A stretch of DNA of 64,000 nt from a virus (taxonomy: Duplodnaviria; Caudoviricetes). Below, in pieces: positions 56,814 through 63,620 of the stretch. A program made the position numbers and the translations under genes. Each line of letters starts with the position of its first letter. The stretch's first letter is position 1. The stretch covers positions 64,001-128,000 of the IMG/VR virus record IMGVR_UViG_3300013383_000017; one strand, given 5' to 3'. The notes below the pieces were generated by a model that did no database searches, was not told the origin of the DNA, and worked only from the letters and a program-made list of their open reading frames with translations.

Positions 56814-57464
56814 TTATTTCCAATAAATTAATGGTTTATTATATTTAATATTAATACCATCTATCTGTTTAAATATATTAGGTAGCAATATATTATTTCT
56901 GGCACAATAAGATGGATGGGGTGAAAGTATTGTAAATTCTTTATCTATAATAGTAGAATATCTTTTACACCATTCTCCAAATAATACAAATATAGTATGC
57001 GGATATTCACTTTTTATATTTATAATTAATTGTTTTGTAAATAAGTCCCAAATTTCTAAATTAGATGCTGGGTTATTTTCTATTACTGTAAGTGCAGAGT
57101 TTAAAAGAAGGACCCCTTGTTTAGCTAAATAATGTAAATCTTTTTTACCTCCTATAGGAACATCATCATAGTATTTATCTATAGAATCAAGTAAAACTTT
57201 TAACGATGGTGAAGTATATAATGATTCACTATTATTAGCAAAACAAAGTCCTGTAGCAATATCTTTTTGTGAATATGGGTCTTGCCCTAAAAAAACTATA
57301 TTTAGTTTATCAATAGGACAATCAAAAAAGGCTTTAAATATATATTTTTTATTTGGTAAAATATTATATTTAAAAGATAAAGAATTAATATTATTTAAAG
57401 CCTTTTCTAATTCTTTTTTAGGTATTAAAGGTTCCCATTTTTCAAAAAATTGAGAGTAATTCAT
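56814..57464 (-). CDS. ung: Family 1 uracil-DNA glycosylase
   Basis: LGQDPY, ATGLCF, SPSL, QGVLLLNSALTV and HPS. Confidence 0.9.
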   Translation of the reverse strand: MNYSQFFEKWEPLIPKKELEKALNNINSLSFKYNILPNKKYIFKAFFDCPIDKLNIVFLGQDPYSQKDIATGLCFANNSESLYTSPSLKVLLDSIDKYYDDVPIGGKKDLHYLAKQGVLLLNSALTVIENNPASNLEIWDLFTKQLIINIKSEYPHTIFVLFGEWCKRYSTIIDKEFTILSPHPSYCARNNILLPNIFKQIDGINIKYNKPLIYWK

Positions 57465-58002
57465 CTATAACTTCATTAGGAGCTGTTTTTAATTTTAATT
57501 TTGCATATTCTGTTACATTTTCATTACTATCACATTCTGCTGGTATCATTTTTTCAAAGACACACTTAGAAAAATCATAAAAGAGTAGAGATAATCCATT
57601 GATTTCAATATCTTTTATATGTTGTACTAACCATTTTTCTAAAGGGTCATTAGAAGTTAAACATTCTTTATTTAATAAAAAAATACCATGTGATGATATA
57701 AAAACAGGAATATTTTTATTATTATAAATAATACCATTATATGTGTAATATATAGTATCTTTTAATTTTGCTTTGCATTTATTAGTATTTCTTGCTAATA
57801 ATAACAGTAGACTTGATACATTTTTAACTACAATAGTTATACTGTGCCTATAATTAACTGTATAAATACATGGCATAGAAATAGGTAATGTATATTTATA
57901 ATTACTAGTGTCTCTATTAATAATTATATAATAAGAATCAATATCAGCAGGTATTCTATTAATAGGATAGTTTAAGTATTTCCAAGTTTTAATTGATATC
58001 AT
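57442..58002 (-). CDS. Hypothetical protein directly downstream of the E1-like gene
   Basis: Starts 3 nt after the E1 stop and overlaps the ung start. Confidence 0.65.
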   Translation of the reverse strand: MISIKTWKYLNYPINRIPADIDSYYIIINRDTSNYKYTLPISMPCIYTVNYRHSITIVVKNVSSLLLLLARNTNKCKAKLKDTIYYTYNGIIYNNKNIPVFISSHGIFLLNKECLTSNDPLEKWLVQHIKDIEINGLSLLFYDFSKCVFEKMIPAECDSNENVTEYAKLKLKTAPNEVIDELLSIF

Positions 58003-58005
58003 TAT

Positions 58006-58851
58006 TTATTTTTGTTTTAAAAACATTAATTCTGCATTATATTCTGTATAGAAAGGTAAGTCCCTTTCCATTAAAGGATTACAGTCAAGATTAGTAACAT
58101 AATTTATAAAAAGATTAGTCATTAAGGAACCTATTAAAGTAGCAGTATAAGTTGTTTGTTTGTAACTACATATTGATTGTTCCGCTTCTGCATCATCAAA
58201 TAACCACTTTTCCTTATACTCTTCTATTCTTTTTTCATCATGTGCAGGAATACAGAATATCTGTAGCTGCTCTGCTGCTAACCTTCCATCTATAAAAACA
58301 CCACTAGTATTAGTAGTATCCCGTAACCAACTATGAAATGCTATTTTTCTAGTTTGCATATTATCTACACAACAAAATGTTATAGGACATAACTTATAAA
58401 TATCTGAAAATCTTTCACTATAACAATATAAGTCTACATTATCACTAAATAATACAATATTTAAGCGTAAAGCATCTACTTTATATTTTCCTATATCATT
58501 TATTGTATACATTTGTCCAGATATATTTTCTTCTCCTACTTTATCTGGATCAAAACACCTTATTTTAGCTAGATTTAATCTACTTAGATTATAAACTAAA
58601 TTACTACCTATTCCTCCACAACCAATAACAGCTACTTCCTTAGTTTTTACTGCTTCAAACCATATTGCTGAAGAAAATCTAGAGGTCTTTAAATCTATTT
58701 TTTCTTCATCAGTTTTTATTATTGGTAGTATTTTATTTTCTTCAGTTACTGTAATCTCTTCTTCTGTCACTGTTGGTGTGGTTGTTTGAAATAATTCACT
58801 ATATTCTTCTGGTGATAGTATTTGTCTAAAAGTGTTTTCTATATTTTCCAT
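58006..58851 (-). CDS. ThiF/E1-like ubiquitin-activating enzyme
   Basis: VAVIGCGGIGS, FDPDKVGEENISGQ, IGKYKVDA, CVDNMQTR and FIDGR; candidate catalytic Cys228 (QSICSYKQ). Confidence 0.88.
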   Translation of the reverse strand: MENIENTFRQILSPEEYSELFQTTTPTVTEEEITVTEENKILPIIKTDEEKIDLKTSRFSSAIWFEAVKTKEVAVIGCGGIGSNLVYNLSRLNLAKIRCFDPDKVGEENISGQMYTINDIGKYKVDALRLNIVLFSDNVDLYCYSERFSDIYKLCPITFCCVDNMQTRKIAFHSWLRDTTNTSGVFIDGRLAAEQLQIFCIPAHDEKRIEEYKEKWLFDDAEAEQSICSYKQTTYTATLIGSLMTNLFINYVTNLDCNPLMERDLPFYTEYNAELMFLKQK

Positions 58852-58867
58852 TTTATAAAATTATTAT

Positions 58868-60013
58868 TTAAAATTCATTTGAAAACATATAAGTATTCAG
58901 TATATCTAATATGTTATCAATATAATCATTAGATTTCATTGTTCTTAATAGTTTAGCTATATTATAAGCATATATACACATTATTGATACTGTAATATCT
59001 TCATCTGAATTATCATAATTTATATACCTTTCTAGTTTATCATCTTCTATATGACTTAATATATAATCACAAAGTCTTTCTATGTAATCAGTATAGGTAA
59101 AAATATCAGAAAAATAGTTATCAAGAGTTTTTACCATATCTTTTTCTACATATTTTCTAATATCATCAATATTATTGCACTGAGAACATACATTTGCTGA
59201 TACTAATTTATAAGTTACATCATATAAAGTATGTAAATCTATAGGAGCTTTACTATAAAAAGTACCTACATCTTTTAGCTCTACTTCTTCATCTTTCTCT
59301 TTTGAAAAATTTAATGATATAAATCCTTTATTGTCAGTGTCATGGTTATCAAACAAAGAAGGGTATATAGATTTATAATTTGTTACTTTTTTAGCTGTTA
59401 GTTCCTTATATCTATCTAGAATATCTTTATTGATCGAATCATTCTTTCCTTCAATTACTATTTCTAGAGGAAACCACTCTATACCTGTTACTTTAGAGCA
59501 ATTTATATTTTTAGTATCACTAAAATTATCATCAAAACACTTTGTAGTTACTGTTGATACTCCTGTAATAGTCGTTATTACTTGTCTTGTAATTCTTGCA
59601 GTATATTGTTCTGCATTATTTACAATCAAAGAAAGAAAATTACAAGTTTCTTTTCCTTCTTTTTCTAGTGTATCTTCATCTGTACCACTAAAGAAAGTCT
59701 GCATCTGTTGATGTGAGTGAATTAATCCTATTTTACAGTCTAATAAATCTGAAAGTAACATATATTGTGTTATTTCAGCATCTACTTTGAATTCAGTAAA
59801 AGTAGCATTTCCAACATCAGATACTAGAAAATCTTCTACTGTTAATTTAATACCATTTTCAAAATTCTCTTTATAATTATAAAATAAATATCCAGACCAT
59901 TCTGTTGTTGGGGATACTTTACACCATTGTTGTATCTTCTCAAAGACTTTTTTAGGTATAAATAATTGTTGCTTTACAGCACTTTTTGTTTTAAATAATA
60001 TACTCTGTTCCAT
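58868..60013 (-). CDS. JAB/JAMM (MPN+) metallopeptidase with C-terminal extension
   Basis: E38 (EWSG) and H99-S-H101-x7-S109-x2-D112 give an exact JAMM motif. Confidence 0.85.
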   Translation of the reverse strand: MEQSILFKTKSAVKQQLFIPKKVFEKIQQWCKVSPTTEWSGYLFYNYKENFENGIKLTVEDFLVSDVGNATFTEFKVDAEITQYMLLSDLLDCKIGLIHSHQQMQTFFSGTDEDTLEKEGKETCNFLSLIVNNAEQYTARITRQVITTITGVSTVTTKCFDDNFSDTKNINCSKVTGIEWFPLEIVIEGKNDSINKDILDRYKELTAKKVTNYKSIYPSLFDNHDTDNKGFISLNFSKEKDEEVELKDVGTFYSKAPIDLHTLYDVTYKLVSANVCSQCNNIDDIRKYVEKDMVKTLDNYFSDIFTYTDYIERLCDYILSHIEDDKLERYINYDNSDEDITVSIMCIYAYNIAKLLRTMKSNDYIDNILDILNTYMFSNEF

Positions 60014-61037
60014 TGCTACTTATTGTTGCATTTAATAATTTTATTATACATACTACTATATAATTAAAAGCACTTTCTCCTAATCCATATACTTTATTAT
60101 ATTCTTGATAACCATTATTTTTTATTTTAATGTGTACTGGTTCTCCTTTAAAATTAAAATAACTAATAGTTGGATATCTAGATATAACATCTTCTAAACT
60201 AGAAAAAGGATAATAACTCACATTATTAGTTTCTGTTTTCCATAAAGTATTGTTTTTAAAAACTCTTATCGCCAAAAAACTTCTTTTTGTACTTAGAGGA
60301 ATACTGGTAACTAAATTACACCATTCAATATAACTATTTGAAATGTCTATATAACAATCTGAAATAGATTTATTGAACCAAAATATGCTACCATTATAAG
60401 AAAATGGGGTATCTTCTTTTTTAATATAATACCTAATAAAAGAATTTAATATTGATTTATCATTAGATGGTATATTATTTATTATATTTGTTCTTAAGTT
60501 ACTAAATAATATTGGTGTTAAGTGTTCTTTTTTATTTACATTACTTAAATATCTATAGGGTACACCTCGTAGACTTTCTGTTTTTACATATAAAGATAAC
60601 TCAAAACAAAATAGTTCCCATTTATCTAAATTATTATTTATCAACAATTCATATTGAGTTCTTTTTATAGGTCCTGTTCCTAGACATGGTGTTTTCCATT
60701 CATACTTATATGGTATACCTTGTATGTGAGAATGACAATAGCTATGTTCTAATTGAGCTATAGTAAATGTAGTACCAGTCATAGTAAATAAATTAAATAA
60801 TTTACCTTCTTTAGTAAGGGGTACTTGCACCCAAAGATCTTCCACATCTAGACTTTCATTATTTTCATTAGATATAGTTACTTTTGGAAAATGTACTATG
60901 ATATTACAAAATTCAGTATTATCTGTATTTGTATCTTCTCTATTAGTAATATTTAAATCAGTATTTTCTTCTCCAAAAAAGTCTTTAAACACATTATAAA
61001 CCTCGTTTACTTGTGTTGTGTTTTCATTGCTACTCAT
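59991..61037 (-). CDS. Putative prokaryotic E2-like conjugating enzyme
   Basis: YCHSHI...PCLGTGPI (His102/His104, Cys118) resembles the HPH...CLG pattern of prokaryotic E2 folds; lies between the Ubl and JAB genes. Confidence 0.55.
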   Translation of the reverse strand: MSSNENTTQVNEVYNVFKDFFGEENTDLNITNREDTNTDNTEFCNIIVHFPKVTISNENNESLDVEDLWVQVPLTKEGKLFNLFTMTGTTFTIAQLEHSYCHSHIQGIPYKYEWKTPCLGTGPIKRTQYELLINNNLDKWELFCFELSLYVKTESLRGVPYRYLSNVNKKEHLTPILFSNLRTNIINNIPSNDKSILNSFIRYYIKKEDTPFSYNGSIFWFNKSISDCYIDISNSYIEWCNLVTSIPLSTKRSFLAIRVFKNNTLWKTETNNVSYYPFSSLEDVISRYPTISYFNFKGEPVHIKIKNNGYQEYNKVYGLGESAFNYIVVCIIKLLNATISSNGTEYII

Positions 61038-61048
61038 TTTAATTAATT

Positions 61049-61075
61049 TATCCCCAAGAATATATCTTGGGGATA
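61049..61075. other. Perfect 11-bp stem hairpin between the Ubl-like and E2-like genes
   Basis: tatccccaaga-atata-tcttggggata; no U-tract on the coding (-) strand. Confidence 0.8.
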
Positions 61076-61085
61076 TTAAATAATA

Positions 61086-61670
61086 TTAAATTAAACCATT
61101 AAATAAAGCTAATAGGTCTTCTTCTTTATTAGATTCTTTTAGATACTCATTTAATGCATAGAATATAAATTGTTTTTCTCTCTCTGAGAATTCTTTATTA
61201 TTCTTTACCCATGTCATAAATGAATTTATTGATGAATCTTCACTATTATGGCTACTTGCTATTTGTGTAGTTTTCCAACTATCTATATAACTTTCTAGAG
61301 TTTGAGTAGGAAGGTTAGTAAAGGAATAACCATAAATATCTTTAATAGGCTTATTTAAATTATTTGTAGTAATAAAATCATAACATTCTGCCCTAGTAAG
61401 TCCAGAAGCAATCTTTTTCTGTGCTGTAGTTATTAGGAATACTAATTCATTAGTAGGATTACCATTCTTATCAGGTACATTTGTAGGAAGTATAGCATCA
61501 TCTACAAATAGTTCTGTCTTTGATCTTCCTTCAAGAAATGCCATACCAGTACTTTCAATTCCTACATTTAAAAGTTCTGCTCTTAATTCACCAAGTGTTG
61601 TAGCATTTGACATAAGTTCTTTTCTTGACTGTGTTGTGGATGAGATAACTGTAATTTTTCTTGTTTCCAT
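61086..61670 (-). CDS. Putative ubiquitin-like (beta-grasp) precursor with C-terminal extension
   Basis: First 90 aa follow a beta-beta-alpha pattern (RKITVIS / RKELMS / ATTLGELRAEL), then DDAILP and a final strand LVFLIT leading to KKIASG90; about 100 helical residues follow. Confidence 0.6.
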   Translation of the reverse strand: METRKITVISSTTQSRKELMSNATTLGELRAELLNVGIESTGMAFLEGRSKTELFVDDAILPTNVPDKNGNPTNELVFLITTAQKKIASGLTRAECYDFITTNNLNKPIKDIYGYSFTNLPTQTLESYIDSWKTTQIASSHNSEDSSINSFMTWVKNNKEFSEREKQFIFYALNEYLKESNKEEDLLALFNGLI

Positions 61671-61710
61671 AATATAATAAATTAAAATAATAAATAAATT
61701 GTTAATAAAA

Positions 61711-62709
61711 TTAAAATGGTGTTGCCACCAATGTTGAAATAACTTCTTTTACTTTTTGTCTGTTAAAGTTTTTACATAAATCTGATGGGTCTTTAGATTG
61801 ATATTCTGTAGGTATTTCTATTTGATATAAATCAAATAAACTTGCTAACTTATTACCAAAGATATGACCATGATTTTCTGTAGATTTAAAATCATTATCA
61901 TATAAAATAAAGACTTTATCAAATCTATTTTTTAACTGATTTATAACTTCTTTTTTTGGTATATAACCTTCTCCTTGTAAACTAACTGATGGAATTAATG
62001 TATTTTCCCATATACATAGGGCATCTTTTCTTGAAGATGTTATAATTAGATTCTCCCCTTTTTCTGGTAGTTTAGTCCATAAATCCCATACTGAAGCATT
62101 ATGTTTATTTAACCATTTTTGTTTAATATTAAACGGTTGATATATTTTGTAAGATAGTATATTATCTTTATTCTCTACATAAACATAAGCATATTTATCA
62201 GCAGGGAAAATTAATTCTTTATTATTCTTATATAAAAATATATGAGATATAGGATATATATCTCCAAACTTTAACCAAGAAAGAGAAATACCATAACTTT
62301 CCCAGTAATCTAAATCATACTGTTTCCATTCTCTTGTTTTTACTTTTATAGAAGAAGATGTTATAATATGTTTTTTATTATAATAAGTTTCTTTTTTATA
62401 TATAGTAGCATTATTATTTATTTTATATAAATCTTTATTTATTCTATTTAATACTTCAAAATAATTACAATTCCAAGTTAATTTAAATAATTCTATTATA
62501 TTACCATGATTATATGTTGCAAAATCTTTAAAAAGAATAGAATTATTACTATAAAAAATCCCTACAGAGGGTTTCTTATCTTCTCTGTAGGGAGCATTTA
62601 TTAAACATGGAATAGTAGTTATATTAAAATAATAATGTAATAATGCTTCTTCTGAAACACTATCTAGAATGTCTATATATGAAACACTACTATTTCCTTT
62701 ACTTATCAT
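61711..62709 (-). CDS. DNA primase (DnaG-like TOPRIM)
   Basis: APYREDKKPS N-terminal domain, IITSSRKDAL, ILYDND and KDPSD. Confidence 0.8.
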   Translation of the reverse strand: MISKGNSSVSYIDILDSVSEEALLHYYFNITTIPCLINAPYREDKKPSVGIFYSNNSILFKDFATYNHGNIIELFKLTWNCNYFEVLNRINKDLYKINNNATIYKKETYYNKKHIITSSSIKVKTREWKQYDLDYWESYGISLSWLKFGDIYPISHIFLYKNNKELIFPADKYAYVYVENKDNILSYKIYQPFNIKQKWLNKHNASVWDLWTKLPEKGENLIITSSRKDALCIWENTLIPSVSLQGEGYIPKKEVINQLKNRFDKVFILYDNDFKSTENHGHIFGNKLASLFDLYQIEIPTEYQSKDPSDLCKNFNRQKVKEVISTLVATPF

Positions 62710-63620
62710 TACTTAACTAACCAACTACTAGGTACTTCTTGTGTTGTAGGTTCTACTTTGGTAGGGGTATTTACATATTCTTGAAGATTAGTAAGTGTGC
62801 CATCTACAAAGAATTGTGTATTCTTTATATTACTGCTTTCAGAAGCTCTTTCTTGAGCATCTTTGATATCATCATAGAGTTTTGTATATTTAGAAACACC
62901 ACATCTAAGTACTTTATTAGTATATACTGTTTGATATTGGTCATTATCTTCAGTAGTCCTAACACCAAATGCTACTTTCATTTTATTAGTAGGTTGATAT
63001 GAAAGTACTTCTTGTAGTTCTGAGAAATCCCCCTTAAAATAATCTGCTACTTTCTCTAATCTAGCTGTACAATCTTCTGGATGTGCAGTCATTACCCACT
63101 CTCCATTTTTATAATCCATTACATTAGGAATATTAAGATATACTTTCAATGCTTCTGTAAGGGCTTCTTCACCTACATAAGCAGCTCTATAATCATTAGT
63201 AATGTTAAATGGATGCTCTATTCCATCTTTAGTATAGGTAGGAATTTCTTTATTAGCAAACTGTTCTGTAGTAACCCAAGCAAATCTACCATACTGATCA
63301 ACTACTTGTAGTTTAGTTCCATCTGCATTCTTTCTAGGCTGATTTCTAAGAATAAAAGAAGCTCTAACTGTCTTTTCTATATCATTATTTCTAGTAGGAT
63401 CAGTTTGTAATACCCATTCTATTCTAGCCATCTCTACAGATTCCCCATTAACATCTATTGTTGAAACATAAGATGGCTCTTCTGTAACTACATCTCTATC
63501 ATAGATAGAATTAAGAGTTTTCATATCTGGGCAAATTGCCTTTACAAATACTGAACCAACACCTACATAATACTTTTGACTAGCTGTTTCTACTGAAACT
63601 TTTCCTTTTGATATTGCCAT
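62709..63620 (-). CDS. Conserved replication-module protein (possible ssDNA-binding protein)
   Basis: Translationally coupled to primase; beta-rich with a flexible C-tail. SSB role is inference only. Confidence 0.45.
   Translation of the reverse strand: MAISKGKVSVETASQKYYVGVGSVFVKAICPDMKTLNSIYDRDVVTEEPSYVSTIDVNGESVEMARIEWVLQTDPTRNNDIEKTVRASFILRNQPRKNADGTKLQVVDQYGRFAWVTTEQFANKEIPTYTKDGIEHPFNITNDYRAAYVGEEALTEALKVYLNIPNVMDYKNGEWVMTAHPEDCTARLEKVADYFKGDFSELQEVLSYQPTNKMKVAFGVRTTEDNDQYQTVYTNKVLRCGVSKYTKLYDDIKDAQERASESSNIKNTQFFVDGTLTNLQEYVNTPTKVEPTTQEVPSSWLVK

Follow-up and report, generated by a model that had tools for sequence, protein, structure and literature searches.

Here, we describe a gene cassette in a 64,000-nucleotide stretch of phage DNA (the window in what follows), which corresponds to bases 64001-128000 of the 141,886-base IMG/VR virus record IMGVR_UViG_3300013383_000017 (Duplodnaviria; Caudoviricetes). 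Five tightly packed minus-strand genes, bounded by a primase gene and a uracil-DNA glycosylase (UDG) gene, encode in their order of reading a putative ubiquitin-like protein (Ubl) made as a proprotein (61086-61670, 194 aa), an E2-like protein, ORF348 (59991-61037, 348 aa), a JAB metalloprotease (58868-60013, 381 aa), an E1-like adenylyltransferase (58006-58851, 281 aa) and a protein X (57442-58002, 186 aa). A first-pass annotation, made from the letters of the window alone, had placed four co-oriented genes between primase and UDG and read them as a complete Ubl conjugation set. Indeed, the four open reading frames (ORFs) lie there on the minus strand, and every motif residue that it had named, including the Ubl tail, the JAMM set, Arg58, GxGGxG, Cys118 and Cys228, is present. 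The reading as a Ubl conjugation set is supported, but the description omitted a fifth conserved gene, X, and a partly conserved extension behind Gly90 of the Ubl. The window DNA is AT-rich (GC content ~0.25-0.30), and bases 57400-62800 share ~68% nucleotide identity, in short conserved stretches, with Bacteroides phage crAss001, the PhiCrAssBcn isolates and related uncultured crAss-like phages.

The Ubl domain occupies residues 1-90 of the proprotein (61401-61670) and consists of a predicted beta-grasp and a flexible tail that ends in K85-K-I-A-S89-G90. An AlphaFold (AF2) model, built on a 55-sequence alignment, reached a mean predicted local distance difference test (pLDDT) score of 81.6 and ~90 across residues 1-80, with a beta-beta-alpha-beta..beta unit in residues 4-82; residues 86-88 of the tail fell below 50, as expected of a flexible segment, and helices were predicted at 93-190. 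We compared the models with solved structures using VIA-align, whose own caution line lies at Z ~8. All 50 listed rows for the Ubl were ubiquitin-like, 37 chains reached a Z of at least 8, and the best was the Ubl of TINCR (Z 10.0, root-mean-square deviation 2.1 Å, 72/75 residues aligned), with ubiquitin at Z ~9 and MoaD lower at 7.9. Foldseek returned, with probability 1.0, almost only ubiquitin-like proteins (SUMO1, UBX, ubiquitin variants, Hub1, ISG15). The matching region spans residues 1-86. At the level of sequence, the window protein gave nothing meaningful in Pfam, PHROG function labels, NCBIfam or PADLOC, a Pfam scan of 55 aligned family members gave nothing, and a profile search of the PDB sequences returned zero matches. 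As far as models can settle it, we regard as settled that the 194-aa protein starts with a ubiquitin-type beta-grasp fold, as had been proposed for its first ~90 residues.

We found 93 homologues of the Ubl. They are well conserved over the first 90 residues, up to an invariant I/V-x-S-G, and the sequence beyond varies in length and residues. Conservation is counted here and below over 76-85 distinct relatives of each protein at 25-44% identity to the window (25-33% for the E2-like protein). Among them, K85, S89 and G90 of the Ubl are invariant (83/83). The extension (residues 91-194, 61086-61400) comprises a conserved helical part at 91-130, a variable linker and an acidic tail, and measures 104-217 aa in relatives; the mean fraction of the most frequent residue is 0.66 in the Ubl domain, 0.56 in residues 91-130, 0.30 in 131-175 and 0.41 in 176-194. 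An invariant Ser-Gly, followed by a sequence that varies from residue 91 onward and by an extension of such variable length, is the pattern of a processed Ubl precursor.

Could the extension itself be the working product? In that case the Ubl would mainly be a cleavable N-terminal partner, as in ubiquitin-ribosomal protein fusions, the C-terminal helical protein, possibly a replisome-binding factor, would be released by the JAB, and E1 and E2 would regulate or recycle it. Consistent with this idea, conservation extends over residues 91-130 (with R93, L105, T118 and L125 at 97% or more) and the last ~15 residues, and the Ubl gene always follows the primase gene. Many family members also carry an acidic C-terminus of the ..EIDxMF.. 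type, and such an acidic aromatic end recalls the SSB-type tails that dock replication proteins. However, linker and extension length vary widely, and the idea gives no reason for every genome to retain an E1 and an E2-like protein whose cysteines are invariant. We consider it quite improbable as the principal explanation; as an additional output of the cassette it is compatible with Ubl conjugation and does not exclude it.

The E2-like protein consists of an N-domain (residues 1-172, 60522-61037) and a C-terminal domain (173-348, 59991-60521). Its AF2 model has a pLDDT of 80.5 and a predicted TM (template modelling) score of 0.72, with pLDDT 87-98 over most of the N-domain, in which a helix (5-21) is followed by four long strands (26-92), a loop and two helices (123-133 and 137-150). 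Two motifs, Y100-x-H102-S103-H104 and P117-C118-L-G120-x-G122-P123, sit in the loop between strand 4 (85-92) and helix 123-133. In the model, this corresponds to the place where E2 enzymes carry HPN...Cys, and the order of elements is as in E2s. The codon of the candidate active-site residue Cys118 lies at 60684-60686. Among the relatives (52 homologues were found), Y100, S103, H104, C118, G120, G122 and P123 are invariant (85/85) and H102 is kept in 84/85; N57, E58, E146 and E154 are invariant as well.

The first-pass annotation had called this protein an E2 with a UBC-like fold, and the structural comparison agrees with it in topology. By our count, 29 of the 50 listed VIA-align rows (from 48,161 representatives) were E2, UEV or RWD proteins, at Z 4.0-5.4, which is below the safe level, and we therefore take them as fold-level support and not as proof. 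The Tsg101 UEV ranked first (5.4), and the rows included VPS37A (5.0), Ubc9 (4.8), Ubc8 (4.8) and the GCN2 RWD domain (4.7); Ubc13, UBE2F, E2S, UbcH5b, UBE2K, UbcH7, UbcH10 and Ube2W also appeared, and the bacterial BubB domain (9eav_D) aligned at Z 4.1 over 117/128 residues. In the ESM Atlas, the nearest named structural cluster was Prok-E2_D (TM 0.53), with mostly viral members. We treat it as a structural lead only, and membership of ORF348 in this family found no support in sequence: Pfam Prok-E2_D (PF14460) gave no match at E <= 1 for the window protein or 44 aligned relatives, and in hhalign the N-domain reached a probability of 0.2% against 11 Prok-E2_D proteins from Bacteroidota. A profile search of the PDB sequences returned zero matches, and apart from giant-virus E2 rows (E ~0.3), the BFVD matches were all crAss-like relatives that are uncharacterised. 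The N-domain profile nevertheless defines a large family, with 3,017 clusters at 50% identity in a library of 1.84 billion proteins. Going by fold and motif position, the N-domain of ORF348 is probably UBC/UEV/RWD-like, with modest scores, and it is the weakest of the four gene calls. The second domain (residues 180-340 in the model) gave weak winged-helix-like matches on residues 180-345 (TcaR/MarR, MukF, MCM8 N-terminal domain; Z 4.0-4.7), and its S233, N234, I237, N241, F296, K297 and N336 are conserved at 97% or more.

The prominence of non-catalytic UEV and RWD proteins among the top matches (Tsg101, VPS37A, GCN2), together with the missing sequence link to any E2 family, would also fit a Ubl activation that does without an E2 step. 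ORF348 would then be an inert UEV/RWD-like scaffold, adaptor or substrate, and the E1 alone would transfer the Ubl or form an acyl-adenylate or thioester for another use. Against this speak the conservation of Cys118 and the Y-x-H-S-H motif at 25-33% identity, which persists in Flavobacterium phage FpV4, and the E2-like placement of the H..C residues between strand 4 and helix 2. To our knowledge, inert UEV and RWD proteins have no such conserved Cys. We regard an E2-free pathway as unlikely.

The JAB gene encodes a JAMM domain at about residues 13-145 (59579-59977), followed by a C-terminal helical region. The window protein matched Pfam Prok-JAB just under the cut-off (E 1.8e-4, 21.8 bits versus 25 bits) and the PADLOC JAB model at E 1e-4, and the best PDB match of the family profile was the archaeal SAMP protease JAMM1 (E 0.017). 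E38, H99, S100, H101, S109 and D112, i.e. the full E..HxH..S..D JAMM motif, are invariant (76/76). Judged by its sequence, the 381-aa protein is a JAB/MPN+ metallopeptidase with a complete JAMM motif.

The E1 gene (58006-58851) encodes a variable stretch of 55 N-terminal residues, R58, the nucleotide-binding motif G77-x-G-G-x-G82, D101, D163 and the candidate catalytic residue C228 (codon 58168-58170). R58, G77, G79, D163 and C228 are invariant in 80/80 relatives, as is D101. A single ThiF domain covers residues 66-262 (Pfam PF00899, E 2.1e-16, 60.2 bits versus a cut-off of 28.1), and the PADLOC Cap2 E1-E2 models matched the adenylation part only (E ~1e-12). In a PDB search with a family profile of 24 members, UBA5 ranked best (E 1.1e-15, aligned over the N-terminal two thirds of the phage protein only), followed by PaaA, UBA6, ThiF, MccB, Uba1, Cap2, MoeB and BubCD. 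The protein has no rhodanese domain and, as the first-pass annotation had pointed out, no CxxC pair anywhere in its sequence. From these matches, the 281-aa protein is a small single-domain ThiF-type E1, closest by sequence to UBA5. Gly90, Cys118 and Cys228, whose conservation the first-pass annotation had proposed to examine, are all invariant, and the conservation of all the residues that it had named is, in the aligned sequences, far beyond chance. R91, R168 and R190 are also conserved in the E1 family, and the codon of Gly112, a position taken up below, lies at 58516-58518.

Several relatives have interrupted JAB or E1 genes. In one (L060:6339-7515, and likewise in L073), the JAB gene is split by ~1.2 kb between the H-S-H and the S-G-T-D of the JAMM motif, and in another (L072:7697-8799) ~1.1 kb with a 292-aa LAGLIDADG-like ORF interrupts the E1 gene just behind the part for the nucleotide-binding region. 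These insertions are probably introns or inteins with homing endonucleases. Their sites fall exactly within the JAMM motif and the nucleotide-binding region of the E1, and homing elements likewise settle in genes that are conserved and needed. In a further relative (L058:5995-7236), the JAB is read in two ORFs (profile positions 4-278 and 292-396), which corresponds to a frameshift, a stop or a sequencing error.

In public records, the E1 appears as a 'thiamine biosynthesis protein' and the JAB as a 'metalloprotease domain containing protein'. Is the cassette then a sulfur-carrier pathway of the ThiS, MoaD, CysO or TtuB type, in which the Ubl carries sulfur for the thiolation of nucleic acids or metabolites and the JAB acts like Mec+ or only trims? 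Operons that combine JAB, E1 and Ubl for sulfur transfer are known (PMC1779556), MoaD is among the fold matches of the Ubl, and the E1 matches the NCBIfam ThiF models. However, the ThiF match is far under the cut-off (66 bits versus 159), as are the matches to the MoeB and PRTRC models, and the E1 lacks both a rhodanese domain and a CxxC zinc site. The Ubl ends in Ser-Gly and not in Gly-Gly, its fold matches ubiquitin-type proteins (Z 9-10) better than MoaD, and a conserved UBC-like Cys protein has no role in sulfur relays. The earlier observation that thiamine and molybdopterin biosynthetic genes are missing here extends to the relatives: no gene for ThiG, ThiH, MoaE, CysM or a sulfurtransferase was found within ~10 kb around the cassette in ~90 loci. 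A role in sulfur transfer therefore appears very improbable to us.

Is the cassette a common element of related phages? To answer this question, we fetched 90 IMG/VR loci by alignment of the E1 and the E2-like protein. The order 303-aa protein, primase, Ubl, E2-like protein, JAB, E1, X and UDG was found in about 85 of them, essentially all that are long enough, and likewise in crAss001 (gp81 to gp74, with gp79 as Ubl, gp78 as E2-like protein, gp77 as JAB, gp76 as E1 and gp75 as X), DAC15 and bajarodcaudo virus 1, so that the synteny for which the first-pass annotation had suggested a search does exist. The neighbours in the loci examined are the primase, the UDG and other replication genes. 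Among deposited phage genomes, the E2-like protein and the E1 occur in crAss-like phages of the crAss001/DAC15 type and in FpV4-like phages. FpV4 itself carries primase and UDG and then Ubl, E2-like protein, JAB and E1 in the same order, with the UDG moved upstream; its Ubl has the ending ..K-S-G-G, and both Y-M-H-S-H and the Cys persist in its E2-like protein. Xanthomonas jumbo phages contain a more distant ThiF-like gene. A distant marine variant (L012:3410-6615, E1 32% identical) has a 558-aa ORF with N-H-S-N-S-G-Y-C-T-G-D, followed by JAB and E1; no separate Ubl gene was detected in it, and the Ubl may be fused or the arrangement different.

The same gene order was found in crAss-like contigs binned into metagenome-assembled genomes (MAGs). 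In long MAG contigs the cassette lies with phage replication neighbours, namely in a 373,651-base contig of Puia sp. (L104) and a 639,747-base contig of Bacilli (L103); in the Puia contig the neighbours are RecT-like, primase, PD-(D/E)XK nuclease and PolA genes. Such contigs could be integrated or episomal crAss-like elements, or result from chimeric assembly or binning.

This distribution bears on whether the cassette is a counter-defence device against host Bil, type II CBASS or Bub systems, in which, for example, the JAB would deconjugate host Ubl or CD-NTase conjugates and the phage Ubl, E1 and E2 would act as decoys. Host Ubl systems attack phage proteins, as in Bil, which tags a phage tail protein (PMC11601596). 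The phage E1 shows detectable similarity to Cap2 models, and genes of the Prok-E2_D type were found in 9 of the 401 Bacteroidota genomes searched and in B. thetaiotaomicron. Genes against host defences tend to be variable and accessory, whereas the whole lineage keeps the cassette at one place and in one order within its replication core, with hosts as distant as Bacteroides and Flavobacterium. Moreover, a decoy would not require all catalytic residues to be invariant. We give little credence to this explanation.

We think it rather probable that the cassette is a phage-encoded Ubl operon, in which JAB trimming after Gly90 would be followed by an E1-to-E2 thioester relay onto host or phage targets. 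In this mechanism, the JAB would cut the 194-aa proprotein after Gly90, in the manner of BilC and BubC on their Ubls, and so separate the Ubl from a C-terminal helical protein that bears the acidic tail. The E1, presumably a homodimer like ThiF, MoeB, Cap2 and UBA5 because it has a single adenylation domain, would adenylate Gly90 and then form a thioester on Cys228, from where the Ubl would move to Cys118 of the E2-like protein. The latter would attach it to lysines of host or phage proteins, perhaps with its own C-terminal domain standing in for an E3, since none is present. The JAB may also reverse the tagging, and gene X may encode a specificity factor or a target. For Bil, a pre-processing by JAB with a subsequent E1-to-E2 relay over cysteines has been established (PMC10557695). 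The homologous genes of crAss001 belong to its replication module, whose transcription falls 10-30 min after infection (PMC8375218), and the system would hence act during genome replication. Our computations concern the identities of the parts; cleavage, thioesters and conjugation are inferred from these, and any role in host takeover or counter-defence would be a further inference. A complex prediction of an E1 dimer with Ubl(1-90) and the E2-like N-domain gave a score of 0.00, i.e. no answer, and is evidence neither way.

Several observations weigh against a complete conjugation cascade. For the E2-like protein, the VIA-align Z of at most 5.4 lies under the caution line of ~8, Foldseek against the PDB was not significant (best E 0.19), no E2 family of Pfam, NCBIfam or PADLOC matched the window protein, Pfam scans of it and its 44 aligned relatives found none either, and the 0.2% from hhalign against Prok-E2_D counts in the same direction. 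In the E1, Gly112 (79/80) aligns to the ATP-binding Arg of the N-x-x-R motif of PaaA, MccB and UBA5. Furthermore, a profile of E1 residues 150-281 returned zero matches in the PDB and so offered no alignment of Cys228 to a known catalytic Cys. Because the first 40 residues after Gly90 are conserved in the alignment, the Ubl might stay fused as an integral domain. Finally, no E3 and no target was identified.

How does the cassette compare with known systems? The Bil system (BilA-BilB-BilC-BilD; PMC10557695, PMC11601596) likewise has separate genes for Ubl, E2, JAB and E1 and no E3, its JAB removes extra C-terminal residues of the Ubl to expose the Gly, as we predict for the phage, and both E1 and E2 carry cysteines, so that thioester chemistry is expected. 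However, BilD is a large IAD-AAD-CYS enzyme with a Cys4 zinc site (PMC10557695), in contrast to the 281-aa single adenylation domain without CxxC of the phage. BilB has C..E.H..H, with His after the Cys, whereas the phage His residues precede it, and BilA of E. aridi has one extra residue (Ala98 after Gly97), compared with a partly conserved extension of 104-217 aa. Bil lies in a bacterial defence island and not in a phage replication module, the phage set has the extra gene X, and there is no sequence-level match for the phage Ubl or E2-like protein.

In Bub (6E/DUF6527) systems of types I and II (PMC11601596), the JAB must release the Ubl from a larger precursor, and the E1 is of the homodimer type of adenylation domain; BubCD is among the E1 profile matches (E 2.5e-6), as is the BubB E2 domain among the structural matches of ORF348 (9eav_D). 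Unlike the phage cassette, Bub has Ubl-E2, JAB-E1 or E2-E1 fusions, oxyesters on an E1 Tyr and an E2 Ser in place of catalytic cysteines, and the serine protease BubE; the phage genes are separate, Cys228 and Cys118 are invariant, and Pfam gave no DUF6527 match. The UFM1 system (UBA5-UFC1-UfSP) shares with the cassette a minimal E1 around one adenylation domain, UBA5 being the best solved match. UFM1 is made as a precursor and ends in a tail other than Gly-Gly (Val-Gly). The phage Ubl and E2-like protein nevertheless have no detectable relation to UFM1 and UFC1, and the phage trimming enzyme would be a JAMM metalloprotease and not a Cys protease. In type II CBASS, the E1 adenylation domain of Cap2 is similar (PADLOC E ~1e-12; PDB Cap2 E 2e-7) and Cap3 is a JAB partner, but Cap2 unites E2 and E1 in one protein and conjugates the C-terminus of the CD-NTase, whereas the phage has a dedicated Ubl and no CD-NTase or effector. 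The PRTRC/Prok-E2_D cassettes of Bacteroidota mobile elements, from the same host phylum, also bring together a ThiF-family E1 (TIGR03736, E 2.9e-13), a JAB-like and an E2-like protein; the phage E1, however, scores 49.7 bits against a cut-off of 144.75, and the Prok-E2_D active-site motif H-A-P-F-F-N..C-M-G differs from the phage Y-x-H-S-H..P-C-L-G. As the Ubl and the E2-like protein match no described family by sequence, we do not place the cassette in Bil, Bub or Prok-E2_D and consider it a distinct variant of the Ubl conjugation system.

The fifth gene, X, always directly follows the E1 gene and encodes 186 aa in the window and 214-270 aa in relatives. Every locus with both an E1 and a UDG gene has one ORF at this place, and a single jackhmmer family covers 85 of 91 such ORFs and includes the window protein at E 1.7e-15. 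Only P18, Y85, G90 and I125 are conserved at 90% or more, there is no conserved Cys or His, and Pfam, PHROG, NCBIfam and PADLOC gave no match of note. An Atlas feature search pointed to the UDG superfamily (0.84-0.85, a lead only); we dropped this idea after a comparison of the X family with that of the neighbouring UDG by hhalign (probability 0.15%).

The cassette is flanked upstream by the DnaG-type primase gene (61711-62709, minus strand; PHROG 12622 DNA primase, E 3.5e-50) and downstream by the UDG gene (56814-57464, minus strand; PF03167, E 9.6e-11), both fixed neighbours. The E2-like and JAB genes overlap by 23 nt in the window (59991-60013) and by a median of 59 nt over 87 loci (up to 212 nt in relatives), which suggests translational coupling and perhaps a complex of both proteins; JAB and E1 genes are spaced by 2 nt across the loci of relatives. 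The five genes probably form one operon that is expressed with the replication (middle) genes. A hairpin, TGGTGGCAACACCA, with a T-run lies at 61717-61730 on the minus strand, where it overlaps the primase stop codon 40 nt ahead of the Ubl start, and may be a weak terminator or attenuator; in 8 kb, 3 such hairpin/T-run sites were found versus 1.4 expected. A promoter scan was uninformative (69 sites versus 63 expected). Upstream of the primase, a 303-aa protein without Pfam or PHROG match (62709-63620) is linked as firmly as the cassette is downstream. The virus record, at 141,886 bases, is longer than the cultured relatives listed (88-104 kb).

In our full-text literature searches, no paper linked crAss-like phages with ThiF, E1, JAB or ubiquitin-like functions; a Crassvirales review makes no mention of E1, JAB or ubiquitin-like genes, nor does the Bil preprint of phage-encoded homologues (PMC10557695). 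Prokaryotic Ubl conjugation has so far been described in bacterial systems that act against phages (Bil, Bub, type II CBASS). To find a complete set fixed in a phage replication core reverses this picture, in that the virus and not the cell would tag proteins. Tentatively, and with some doubt, we go further and propose that crAss001/DAC15-type and FpV4-like phages run their own complete thioester Ubl cascade during replication, with a new E2 family and a minimal UBA5-like E1, and that the JAB also releases a replisome-directed protein; this would be the first full pathway of its kind in prokaryotic viruses. The lineage includes cultured gut phages (crAss001, DAC15/17, crAssBcn isolates) and phages of fish pathogens (FpV4), so that biochemistry and the proteomics of infected cells can test the idea directly. 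The large family of the E2-like domain has no annotation, and the E1 that goes with it is routinely given the wrong label of a thiamine biosynthesis enzyme; a corrected E1 label would by itself make the annotation of thousands of phage genomes better. We anticipate that a minimal E1 without the canonical ATP-site Arg, together with a new E2-like family, could inform the evolution of E1-E2 cascades.

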